NCBI GenBank assembly: GCA_964413015.1
Contig: CAYPQZ010000006.1
Span: 7,070-71,069, forward strand
Reading direction: 5' to 3'
Source of the DNA: an uncultured Candidatus Saccharibacteria bacterium
GTDB taxonomy: Bacteria > Patescibacteriota > Minisyncoccia > Portnoybacterales > UBA2143
DNA length: 64,000 nt
In this document: positions 23,625-29,373 of the stretch, piece by piece
How positions within the stretch are numbered: the first letter of the stretch is position 1
Layout: the number at the start of each line of letters is the position of its first letter
Translations under genes and position numbers: made by a program
Notes under the pieces: model-generated
What the model was told of the DNA's origin: nothing
Seen by the model: the letters and a program-made list of their open reading frames with translations, nothing else
The model's database searches: none

Positions 23625-24728
23625 ATGAAAAAAATTATTTTAAGTTTAAGCGTTATCGTGGCAGTCGCCGCCATTGTCATCGGCGGAACCATTGCCTATT
23701 TCAGCGATACTGAAGTAAGTGAAGGCAATACCTTTACTGCGGGTAATCTGGATGTGACTATTGCAGAAGGAGAAAGTGAAGATTTTTCAGTTTCTTTTAC
23801 TAATATGGCTCCTGGTGAGTGGACCGAAAAGCAAAAGTTAAATTTGATTAACTCCGGAAGCTTGGCTCAAGTTATTGATAGGATTCAAGTCAGCGGTTTA
23901 GAGGAAAATGATAGAACTTACACTCTTGAAGATTCACAAAATATGGAACAACGTTGGATAGGAAGCGATCCTACGCTTTTTGAATTGAGCGATCCTCTGG
24001 AAGTAAAAGTGAATTATGACGGTAGTGATAGAGCAGTTTTTCACGCTTGGGCTCCTGATGATTATGGTTGGCCAGGGGACGATATGATGACTTTTGCTTT
24101 TGATGTAGATAATAATGGCGAAGCTGATTTTCAGATTCAATGGAACACAAATGGAGAACAGAAGTGGAATTACGATGAACCCATTGTTGGCACCTGGAAT
24201 TGGGAAAAAGATTGGGTCGAGGTACCGGGTGACTTTGTAACGGGTAAAGATGGAAAACATTTCTGGGTAAAAATTCCCGTAAGTTATCTTGGTGGTTATG
24301 ATTCTGAATACAAGTTCGGAGTTGATTCTAATGGTCATGGTAGTGGGAAAGGACAAACTTTCTATTCTACCGACCCTTGGAATTTATGGAGCACTCAATC
24401 ACAACCCGGTAATTATACTACTAGTGAAAATTATGTTCCAATGAGCACAAAATCAGCAAAAGATATGAATGCCAATCAAGTTGCTAAAAATATAAATGTA
24501 AAGGTTTATCATAACGGATTGATTCGTCAGGGCACTCTTTGGAACTTTTACAAGAGTGGTGATAATAAGAACATGATTCTAAATGGTAATGAAATTACAT
24601 TGAATCCCGGAGAAGAAGGATGGTATAACTTTGAATTCCAGCTTGATCCTTCAGTAGGTAATGATTATCAAGGTGACGGAATAGAGGCTACGTTTGAAGT
24701 GGAAGCTGTTCAAGAAGGTCAAGAGTAG
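23625..24728 (+). CDS. secreted protein with a SipW-cognate (TasA/camelysin-class) signal peptide
   Basis: N-terminus MKKIILSLSVIVAVAAIVIGGTIAYFSDTEVSEGNTFTAGNLDV carries the AYFSD hallmark. 367 aa. Confidence 0.6.
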   Translation: MKKIILSLSVIVAVAAIVIGGTIAYFSDTEVSEGNTFTAGNLDVTIAEGESEDFSVSFTNMAPGEWTEKQKLNLINSGSLAQVIDRIQVSGLEENDRTYTLEDSQNMEQRWIGSDPTLFELSDPLEVKVNYDGSDRAVFHAWAPDDYGWPGDDMMTFAFDVDNNGEADFQIQWNTNGEQKWNYDEPIVGTWNWEKDWVEVPGDFVTGKDGKHFWVKIPVSYLGGYDSEYKFGVDSNGHGSGKGQTFYSTDPWNLWSTQSQPGNYTTSENYVPMSTKSAKDMNANQVAKNINVKVYHNGLIRQGTLWNFYKSGDNKNMILNGNEITLNPGEEGWYNFEFQLDPSVGNDYQGDGIEATFEVEAVQEGQE

Positions 24729-24786
24729 TAATTGATCTTTTTAAAGCCGTCTCATAAGGGGCGGCTTATAAAGGGATTAATTATTT

Positions 24787-27902: not shown

Positions 27903-29373
27903 ATTAACCCGAACAATTTTAATTTCCGCGATTCCGTTTATCTTTATCGGTCTATTATTCATTGAGCCGGTTTTTGCACAATCTACTGACCTTTTAGAGG
28001 TTTATGTTTGGGATGGCAGCAGTTATCAGCTGTTAAACAGTAATTCTCTTTTTAATGAAGATAATTTTTTGCCCGGCCAGAGTGTTTCCAAAAAAATTAA
28101 AATAAAAAACTTGAGTTCAGTTAGTGAAAATATCGGGGTGGAAGCGATTAATTTTTCCGGAGCCGATTTTAATGAGTCAAATCCGGCTGACGTTGAGATA
28201 AACAGCTTAGCCCGTTATTTAATTTTAGATATTGACAATCCGATTAATATTTTTAGCGGAACTTTATTTTCCTTTTACGAACTGGGCAAATTGACGCTCA
28301 TTTCTAATTTGGCCAGCCAGTCAGAAGAGGAGTTTATTTTTAAGATAACTTATCCCAGCCCGGAAGAAAATCAAGAGGTAGCCACGACTATCTTTGACCT
28401 TTTATTCGGCACTTTAGCGCAGGAAGGAGGAGATGGAAATGGTGATGAAAATGGAACAAGCGGAAACGGCAGTTCAGAGAACGGCTCCAGTAGCGCGGGC
28501 GGCGGTTCTTATCGGGGGTTAACAATTAGCGGAGAAAAATCAGAAGTAGCTCCGGCCTGCACTACGGCAGTAATTAACTGGCAGACTAACTATTTTTCCA
28601 CTAGCCAGGTCATTTATGACGATGACTCCGGCCAATTCAATTTTAGCGCTGGACCGGAAAATTACGGTTATCAATTTTATAAAATAGGAGATACTTCCGA
28701 GCAAGAAAAAGTAACTTATCACGGAGTAGAATTAACCGGCCTTAATCCAGGAACTACTTACTATTATCGCTGTGTATCTCACGCTTCGCCGGCAACTATC
28801 AGCCAGGAAGGCAGTTTTACTACCTGCGCTTTAGCTGAAGGAGATCAAGAAGAAACAGGCGAAGACGAGGAAGGCGAAGAAGGCGCTGGAGAAGGCGAAG
28901 AAGCCGGTGAAGAAGGCGGAACCGGCGAAAGAACCGGCGCTGGAGAAGGTGAAGAAACCGGTGAAGGTGAAGAAGGTGAAGAAGAAGAAGGCGCTGGAGA
29001 AGGTGAAGAAGGCGAAGGCGAAGATGAAGAAGGCGCCGAAGAAGAAGGAATTACTGAAGAAACAGGCCGGGGCGGACTGGCTAATTTGCTGGCCGCTATC
29101 AGCAGTTTTGATGATTTGAAGCATTTATGCTGGATTATGACCCTGGCGGCAATTCTGCTGTCCCTGTTGTATCTATTTTCCACCCGAAAAAAAATCGATC
29201 AGGAGAGGAAAAAATATGGTTGGGATTTGATTCTTTTACTGCTTATCCTGATAATTTTCCTTTTTGTCCTGAAATGCTATTTATTAATCATCCCGCTTCT
29301 TATCCTGTTGATTCCCTGGAGTAAATATTTATTATTTAGAAAAAAAACTGGTTCGGAGGAAATGCCTAAGTAA
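27895..29373 (+). CDS. surface protein with a signal peptide, fibronectin-III-like domain, E/G-rich acidic linker and C-terminal TM anchor
   Basis: ATG 27895 overlaps the upstream stop. MNKLTRTILISAIPFIFIGLLFIEPVFA. FN3-like TTAVINWQT...LTGLNPGTTYYYRCV. (EEGEEGAGEGEE)n linker. Two C-terminal hydrophobic segments. Confidence 0.5.
   Translation: MNKLTRTILISAIPFIFIGLLFIEPVFAQSTDLLEVYVWDGSSYQLLNSNSLFNEDNFLPGQSVSKKIKIKNLSSVSENIGVEAINFSGADFNESNPADVEINSLARYLILDIDNPINIFSGTLFSFYELGKLTLISNLASQSEEEFIFKITYPSPEENQEVATTIFDLLFGTLAQEGGDGNGDENGTSGNGSSENGSSSAGGGSYRGLTISGEKSEVAPACTTAVINWQTNYFSTSQVIYDDDSGQFNFSAGPENYGYQFYKIGDTSEQEKVTYHGVELTGLNPGTTYYYRCVSHASPATISQEGSFTTCALAEGDQEETGEDEEGEEGAGEGEEAGEEGGTGERTGAGEGEETGEGEEGEEEEGAGEGEEGEGEDEEGAEEEGITEETGRGGLANLLAAISSFDDLKHLCWIMTLAAILLSLLYLFSTRKKIDQERKKYGWDLILLLLILIIFLFVLKCYLLIIPLLILLIPWSKYLLFRKKTGSEEMPK

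Follow-up and report, generated by a model that had tools for sequence, protein, structure and literature searches.

A TasA-family gene cassette with a SipW-type signal peptidase that probably encodes a donor-strand fimbria in Patescibacteria

In Bacillus subtilis TasA the 11 residues just past the SipW cleavage site (28-38) form a donor strand which completes the sheet of the next subunit; the first strand is believed to come from TapA (PMC9674648). A related principle is found in the Tat-fimbriae (tafi) of haloarchaea, which contain the pilins TafA and TafE and a tip protein, TafC, composed of a pilin-like N-domain and a LamG domain (PMC11821415). Fimbriation needs a signal peptidase I of its own, TafD; TafF, a pilin-like N-domain followed by C-terminal transmembrane (TM) helices, has been proposed to accept the last strand and to anchor the fibre (PMC11821415). 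In Natrinema strand donation was confirmed by cryo-EM (PMC12337348), and across the Haloarcula and Natrinema systems experiments back the filament, the donation of strands and the dependence on the peptidase (PMC11821415, PMC12337348). TasA homologues have already been noted as common in Patescibacteria (PMC9245690). Here we describe a four-gene cassette in a 64,000-nucleotide stretch of DNA (the window) that probably encodes a surface fimbria of this TasA/tafi class, assembling by donor-strand exchange, in a bacterium belonging to Patescibacteria (the candidate phyla radiation, CPR).

The four open reading frames (ORFs), here called P1, SipW, P3 and P4, lie on the same strand in this order (Table 1), and an ORF check found all four where an earlier note on this DNA (the original prediction) had placed them. 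The SipW and P3 genes share 1 nt (TAATG); P3 and P4 share 8 nt (ATGAATAA) and not, as first described, a 4-nt ATGA. The ATG at 27895 as start codon of P4 is backed by the consensus N-terminus of the P4 family. P1, P3 and P4 begin with MKKIILSL, MKKMPLKF and MNKLTRTI, respectively, which contain no RR motif and belong to Sec-type signals. SipW-cognate signals had been predicted for P1 and P3 and are present in both: the model TIGR04088 (cognate_SipW, cut-off 19) is matched by P1 with 42.7 and by P3 with 25.6 bits, and P1 also matches Pfam Peptidase_M73 (PF12389) with 53 bits (cut-off 22.5) over residues 7-81 only. The motif GxxAYFSDxE..N.F.AG that had been quoted for both proteins is slightly different in P3, which reads GETMAYFSD...VFKTG.

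Beyond the signal, P1, P3 and P4 share a TasA-like jellyroll. A profile of P1 together with short TasA-like proteins matches B. subtilis TasA (5of1, 8aur) across the whole domain with an E-value of 1e-11; the comparison with the TasA fold proposed in the original prediction gave a positive answer. In the profile alignment TasA 28-38 falls on P1 ~25-36 and P3 ~31-42. Another alignment shows P1 as a TasA domain broken by an insert. P1 reaches just 29.3 bits against the TasA equivalog NF046066 (cut-off 450), which makes it a member of the family and not a TasA orthologue. A single-sequence search of the PDB with P1 gave noise only, mainly Rubisco at E about 0.2, so that the profile search was needed. 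The N-domain of P3 aligns with short TasA-like proteins from the AYFSD motif through the C-terminal Q (hhalign, 99.5 %, E 4e-22), and comparisons among the N-domains of P1, P3 and P4 gave 99.5 and 97 %. The alignment of P4 to TasA-like N-domains starts only at the NFLPG motif; a motif alignment shows that the distance from the cleavage site to the PG motif is ~7 residues shorter in P4 than in P1 and P3, whose first ~11 residues are without counterpart in P4. A search with the P4 N-domain among 1.84 billion representatives returned 190 clusters at 50 % identity (E ≤ 1e-3), almost all of the length and layout of P4, and several relatives of P3 and P4 carry precomputed PF12389 matches. Neither the TasA-like domain of P4 nor the inserted domain of P1 had been recognised in the earlier note.

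The donor motif is distributed unequally among the three paralogues. It was found in 70 of 89 P1-like and in 39 of 84 P3-like proteins, and is missing from all 59 P4-like proteins. TIGR04088 is matched by 24 of 35 P3-like proteins, but neither by P4 nor by any of 58 P4-like proteins. In the AlphaFold2 (AF2) monomer model the N-terminus of P1 is unpacked.

The gene between P1 and P3 indeed encodes a signal peptidase I of the SipW or archaeal-eukaryotic type, as had been proposed. It matches TIGR02228 (sigpep_I_arch) with 114.3 bits (cut-off 51.85) and scores 119.5 bits against the Bacillus SipW equivalog NF046067, below the cut-off of 190. Two TM segments (6-39 and 137-159) and a Lys-rich C-terminal tail are present, and the protein aligns with human SEC11A (7p2p) across the motifs GSMEP, HR and KGDxN..D. 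From the catalytic residues of SEC11A, which we take as established, S46, H85 and D104/D110 emerge as catalytic candidates. All four are invariant in 63/63 cassette homologues. The sequence therefore points to a Ser/His(/Asp) arrangement and not to Ser/Lys, with the activity being putative.

P3 has the composition that had been predicted, with a lamin-tail-like domain (Pfam LTD, PF00932, residues 222-333, 54.3 bits, cut-off 34.3), a LamG domain (Laminin_G_3, PF13385, residues 393-552, 86.4 bits, cut-off 27.6) and a polyacidic tail, which at residues 601-846 consists of 39 % D+E and has a net charge of -87. Most P3 relatives are devoid of the LamG region, so that residue ~347 runs straight into ~562; LamG is therefore an insertion within a conserved LTD-containing module. 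The acidic tail is found in 63/63 relatives (median 179 aa, net charge -43). An adaptation of the tail to a salt lake was considered and rejected, because these relatives come from many habitats. No C-terminal anchor was detected in any of the 84 P3-family members examined. Two cysteines of the TasA-like domain, C103 and C186 (25668-25670 and 25917-25919), are invariant in 35/35 family members, and a disulfide between them might lock the tip subunit; P1 is free of cysteine. More than 40 full-length homologues with 36-60 % identity exist in the databases, where their annotations, if any, are automatic ('lamin tail domain-containing' or 'LamG-like jellyroll', Parcubacteria or Patescibacteria). 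These homologues, as well as the haloarchaeal TafC (pilin-like N-domain plus LamG), the TafD peptidase and the TafF anchor (PMC11821415, PMC12337348), contradict the view of the original prediction that the domain combination is without described counterpart.

For P4, too, the proposed FN3-like domain, E/G-rich linker and C-terminal anchor were recovered: Pur_ac_phosph_N (FN3-like) covers residues 223-310 with 48 bits, the linker at 331-405 contains 37 % E and 29 % G, and hydrophobic segments follow at 407-430 and 439-482. A hydrophobic C-terminal anchor is common to 55 of 58 P4-like proteins, and A28 of the signal peptide is conserved in at least 90 %. Profile matches of the P4 family to Piezo and PMCA in the PDB were set aside as low-complexity artefacts, and marginal ones to the basal pilin FctB of sortase pili (3klq, 8k6t; E about 0.008) were not relied on. 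The TasA-like jellyroll of P1 carries a CBM9-like (lectin-fold) insert with putative sugar binding. The CBM9 match, reported without aligned ranges, was assigned to the insert by its size and strand count; a Pfam scan starting from seven homologues (E up to 10) returned no family, so the insert is no member of the CBM9 sequence family. It is shared by only about a dozen clusters, one of them a Nanoarchaeota protein.

When each GTDB species was scanned by way of a single genome, 79 loci emerged, nearly all of them in Patescibacteria and including Paceibacterota, Parcubacteria, Kaiser-, Taylor-, Zambryski-, Nomura-, Buchanan- and Doudnabacteria. When the proteins of the window were searched against the ORFs of these loci, 80 non-redundant loci were counted. 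SipW is located directly upstream of the P3-like gene in 68 and a P4-like gene directly downstream of it in 55 of them, and the full order (one to three TasA-like genes, SipW, P3, P4) is present in 40, most of the others being cut by contig ends. The gene order thus recurs, as had been asked of related genomes, in about 70 other species-level genomes, a conservation well beyond what chance would give. Since the genomic neighbourhoods differ between genomes, the cassette is a self-contained unit. Parts of it also occur outside the Patescibacteria, including DPANN archaea (P0010, Nanoarchaeota; L075, Aenigmatarchaeota) and L091, as the P1 insert domain alone, as proteins with LTD and acidic tail, and as a complete cassette beside PrkA-DUF444-SpoVR. 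This hints at an exchange between episymbiotic lineages.

The spacer between P1 and SipW is filled by a strong hairpin, and none of 200 shuffles folds as well. Its 3' arm covers the Shine-Dalgarno-like AAGGGA before the SipW start codon. Between the last TasA-like gene and SipW a stable hairpin (z ≤ -3, median -4.8) exists in 37 of 41 related spacers (L005-L089) compared with 15 of 300 random windows, kept as structure and not as sequence. Spacers between tandem TasA-like genes also fold stably in 23 of 32 cases; mononucleotide shuffles served for these spacer controls. A hairpin after the TasA-like gene(s) and translationally coupled SipW, P3 and P4 are the pattern expected if the TasA-like subunit is abundant and the others are low in copy. 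The P1-SipW hairpin is likely to be an attenuator or an mRNA stabiliser which sets the subunit stoichiometry, and the hairpin behind P4 likely marks the end of the operon.

Table 1 Features of the cassette and of its upstream region. Positions are those of the window; residues refer to the respective protein
Feature	Residues	Position	Strand	Remark
Promoter-like site, second		22954-22981	+	consensus scan only; low confidence
Promoter-like site		23254-23281	+	TTGACT-16-TATACT; start of long leader; consensus scan only; low confidence
Conserved leader element		23303-23360	+	two copies of CTAGnGGAGnAAC
Terminator-like hairpin with T-run		23460-23489		within leader
P1, putative shaft subunit, TasA-family		23625-24728	+	367 aa
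P1 signal peptide	1-24	23625-23696	+	cut predicted after GGTIA
P1 donor-strand-like N-terminus	25-36	23697-23732	+
P1 CBM9-like insert	~128-325	24006-24599	+	~190 aa; splits jellyroll
Hairpin, P1-SipW spacer		24727-24785	+	27 bp; fills spacer; dG -31 kcal/mol, z -9.1
SipW-type (archaeal/ER-type) signal peptidase I		24787-25362	+	191 aa
P3, putative tip/initiator adhesin		25362-27902	+	846 aa
P3 signal peptide	1-30	25362-25451	+
P3 donor-like N-terminus and TasA-like domain	31-215	25452-26006	+
P3 LTD core	222-348	26025-26405	+
P3 LamG insert	349-561	26406-27044	+
P3 LTD-module C-terminal segment	562-597	27045-27152	+	DKSYARIPDG..W..P.PTPG.PN; invariant in family
P3 polyacidic tail	598-846	27153-27899	+
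P4, putative membrane anchor and chain terminator		27895-29373	+	492 aa
P4 ordinary signal peptide	1-28	27895-27978	+	cut VFA/QS
P4 TasA-like jellyroll without donor-strand motif	29-175	27979-28419	+	followed by G/S linker
P4 FN3-like domain	209-310	28519-28824	+
P4 E/G-rich spacer	311-395	28825-29079	+
P4 C-terminal TM region	407-482	29113-29340	+
Terminator-like hairpin		29397-29429	+	14-bp stem; 24 nt past P4 stop codon

Homology of the parts, their domain architecture, the distribution of the donor motif, the catalytic residues, the gene order and the hairpin are observations; from them we infer a working model that reaches further, to polymerisation, polarity, the role of each subunit, ligand or host binding and any coupling of cleavage to assembly. 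P1 and P3 would leave the cell by Sec, and SipW would cut just before YFSD and free an N-terminal donor strand in each. P3 would act as initiator and tip: its donor strand would fill the jellyroll groove of the first P1, while LTD, LamG and the acidic tail would face outward as the binding end. The shaft would consist of P1, each copy passing its N-terminal strand to the neighbour on the cell side and displaying its CBM9-like insert. P4, an acceptor jellyroll without donor strand, would take the last strand, end the polymerisation and tie the fibre to the membrane by means of the FN3-like domain, the long acidic E/G spacer, which could cross a wall or S-layer, and the C-terminal TM helices. 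The strong hairpin behind the shaft gene and the translational coupling of SipW, P3 and P4 would keep shaft subunits numerous and those of tip and anchor few. Glycans or cationic surfaces are suggested as binding partners by the LTD, by the acidic tail and by the two lectin-like folds, LamG and the CBM9-like insert; for an episymbiont the host envelope could be such a target. The fibre, S-layer and host-attachment roles named in the original prediction are putative. As a further speculation, cleavage at the membrane might free the donor strands in turn and so render the assembly processive. The complete picture, a membrane-anchored CPR fibre with a lectin-decorated shaft and an LTD/LamG/polyacidic tip gripping host glycans, in which the uncleaved signal anchor tethers each subunit until SipW frees its donor strand and P4 both caps and anchors, is a tentative one and rather unlikely to be right in all its parts.

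Several points weigh against a donor-strand fimbria. Polymerisation is putative, as the structure models used here are those of monomers. P3 matches the TafC model (NF052521) only through the common LamG fold, with 48.8 bits at a cut-off of 410. P1, SipW and P4 match no Taf model of NCBIfam. In the AF2 monomer model the N-terminal 25 residues of P4 are confidently packed as strands, and P4 may be self-complemented instead of being an open acceptor. The P4 segment LLEVYVW corresponds to the TasA strand 39-47 by spacing, without significant alignment. Furthermore, the TasA domain of P3 is complete, so that its sequence does not force a position at the tip, and the bulky insert of P1 might hinder a close packing of subunits. 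For the CBM9-like, LTD and LamG domains, finally, the binding of a ligand is putative.

Some of these points would suit a non-filamentous role, in which SipW matures two TasA-fold monomeric adhesins, lectins or coat proteins (possibly associated with an S-layer) and P4 is an independent membrane-anchored protein. Members of the TasA family such as camelysin/CalY also occur in cell-surface-bound forms that are not fibres, and both the self-contained N-domain predicted for P4 and the insert of P1 would be in line with this. We nevertheless regard such a role as unlikely, as the donor motif is kept in P1- and P3-like proteins and systematically missing from the P4-like paralogue that bears the anchor, the three TasA-fold paralogues strictly keep company and order, and the stoichiometry-type hairpin is conserved. 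In addition, all characterised relatives (TasA, AbpA, tafi) make donor-strand filaments (PMC9674648, PMC9245690, PMC12337348).

A matrix fibre shed in the manner of Bacillus, with P3 as a TapA-like nucleator, P1 as TasA, no anchoring and a functionally unrelated P4, has in its favour that protein family and peptidase are the same as in tapA-sipW-tasA. Moreover, biofilm formation is promoted by tafi and TasA (PMC12337348, PMC9674648), and released, non-finalised chains have also been proposed for tafi (PMC11821415). However, the gene order is reversed with respect to Bacillus, TapA (TIGR04087) is matched weakly by only one of 35 P3-family members, and an unrelated P4 is hard to reconcile with its TasA-like domain, its 8-nt overlap with P3 and its position behind P3 in 55 of 80 loci, which leaves a shed fibre distinctly improbable. 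An extracellular hydrolase or nutrient-scavenging module, finally, is brought to mind by the Pfam names of the matches (M73 'camelysin' metalloprotease, LTD, purple acid phosphatase N-domain) and by the frequent fusion of LTD to nucleases or phosphatases; there is hardly any chance that it applies, since the cassette proteins contain no catalytic domain. The metalloprotease reading of Peptidase_M73 was rejected because P1 and P3 have no HExxH and the match of P1 is limited to the signal, the donor and the first strands, and that of P4 as a purple acid phosphatase because only the FN3-like N-domain is present, without a metallophosphoesterase match. The anchored donor-strand fimbria accordingly stays the preferred reading, and the cassette is a candidate attachment organelle, unstudied in Patescibacteria, which most likely builds a membrane-anchored fibre.

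The proteins of the window have been deposited under 'Firmicutes bacterium ML8_F2', a bin from 8 m depth of Mahoney Lake with 46.6 % GC and related to Dethiobacter (PMC4846661). This label was rejected. The window has ~40 % GC, its MraZ, RsmH, PBP, Mur ligase, RmuC, L21, RecR and DnaB are 45-69 % identical to those of two Patescibacteria metagenome-assembled genomes (L009 and L021), and its housekeeping genes (e.g. 40770-45496 and 50332-54045) are arranged as those flanking the cassette in the same two genomes. The deposited contig is most likely a mis-binned Patescibacteria contig. Such an origin fits the guess of an episymbiotic lineage made in the original prediction, which is probably right.

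Upstream of P1 extends a gene-free leader of 810 nt (22815-23624); gaps of this kind, about 1.1 kb long in L007 and about 1.7 kb in L009, also exist before the first TasA-like gene there. The leader contains two copies of CTAGnGGAGnAAC, the second of which is the Shine-Dalgarno sequence of a small ORF of 49 aa (23358-23507). This element is 76 % identical over 89 nt to L007 (17438-17523, the element itself at 17470-17525), and a third instance was found on the minus strand of the metagenome contig L142 (about 1680-1735). The three contigs are unrelated and Patescibacteria-like. A small ORF follows the element in all of them, with a secreted-protein gene coming next in the window and in L142. 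A metagenome scan with an 18-mer of the leader gave 67 matches, of which 66 are due to chance or to coding sequence (LEEELG codons), leaving L142 as the single match with the extended element. Read by eye, the repeats could form small hairpins with GGA in the loops and would then resemble CsrA-type sites. An Rfam search of the whole leader with E up to 10 returned matches at chance level only and no family for the element. Further upstream (16400-21730) lie genes typical of metal-cluster handling in anaerobes (DUF5320, NifB/X-like Nitro_FeMo-Co proteins, two ParA/MinD-like ATPases with 4Fe-4S, DUF134), which are not kept beside the cassette in other genomes.

Host attachment and recognition are a central question in CPR/Patescibacteria, and the cassette offers a concrete, testable and widespread candidate: lineages of the Paceibacteria/Parcubacteria type have it in at least 70 species-level genomes. 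A perspective on Patescibacteria from 2024 goes no further than type IV pili, unnamed adhesins and a type IV secretion system (PMC11665869), and our literature search found no paper on this operon, on its LTD/LamG/acidic subunit or on an anchored TasA-like terminator. For studies on how such fibres acquire their functions the cassette supplies natural variants: acidic tails, a LamG placed inside an LTD module and a lectin-fold insert in the shaft.

Among the described systems chaperone-usher and sortase pili resemble the cassette by functional analogy only, that is in the logic by which a tip adhesin, a shaft and a basal anchor are combined; neither the folds nor the machinery are related, and the donor strands proposed here point cellward, opposite to the polarity of chaperone-usher pili. 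The intercistronic hairpins which set the excess of the major subunit in fimbrial operons are a further likeness. In the AbpA/AbpB locus of Pyrobaculum there is no dedicated peptidase, and LTD, LamG or an anchor paralogue have not been described for it (PMC9245690). With tapA-sipW-tasA of B. subtilis the cassette shares the TasA-family jellyrolls (P1, P3 and P4), the TIGR04088 signal, an adjacent SipW-type peptidase and a donor strand right after the cleavage site. The proteins are not orthologues, as the NF046066 and NF046067 scores show, and the cassette has no TapA, another gene order and another phylum, and in addition a TasA-like terminator with a membrane anchor and an adhesin-like subunit of several domains. 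The amyloid-like fibres of Bacillus evoked in the original prediction are an outdated comparison, because TasA fibres consist of donor-strand-exchanged globular subunits (PMC9674648). Gene order and roles differ as well.

Among described systems the Tat-fimbria of haloarchaea comes closest, and the cassette appears, as known here from sequence, to be its bacterial counterpart of the Sec/SipW type, enlarged by new domains. By analogy P1 would correspond to TafA, SipW to TafD, P3 to TafC and P4 to TafF. An archaeal-type signal peptidase I is reserved for the purpose in both systems, and both have a pilin whose N-terminus is the donor strand, in P1 a putative one. P3 resembles the tip TafC (pilin-like N-domain and LamG) by analogy of architecture and not as an equivalog; TafC is its sole NCBIfam match besides the SipW signal, and the LamG region matches TafC in 30 of 35 family members. 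The anchors agree in architecture only, Haloarcula TafF having three TM helices and P4 the region 407-430 and 439-482. The tafi differ by their archaeal host and by twin-arginine signals in place of the Sec/SipW-cognate signals of P1 and P3; the cassette has no genes for TafB or TafG, and in sequence nothing but its LamG fold was found to match a Taf model. Its own additions are the LTD and the ~250-aa acidic tail of P3, the CBM9-like insert of P1 and the FN3-like domain and E/G spacer of P4. The cassette, which fails the equivalog cut-offs for TasA, SipW and TafC, belongs to the TasA/tafi donor-strand class, and what is new is that it is Sec/SipW-dependent, bacterial and furnished with added domains. 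It would add a third major lineage to this class of donor-strand fibres, which do without a chaperone, with a layout of tip, shaft, peptidase and anchor common to archaea and bacteria.

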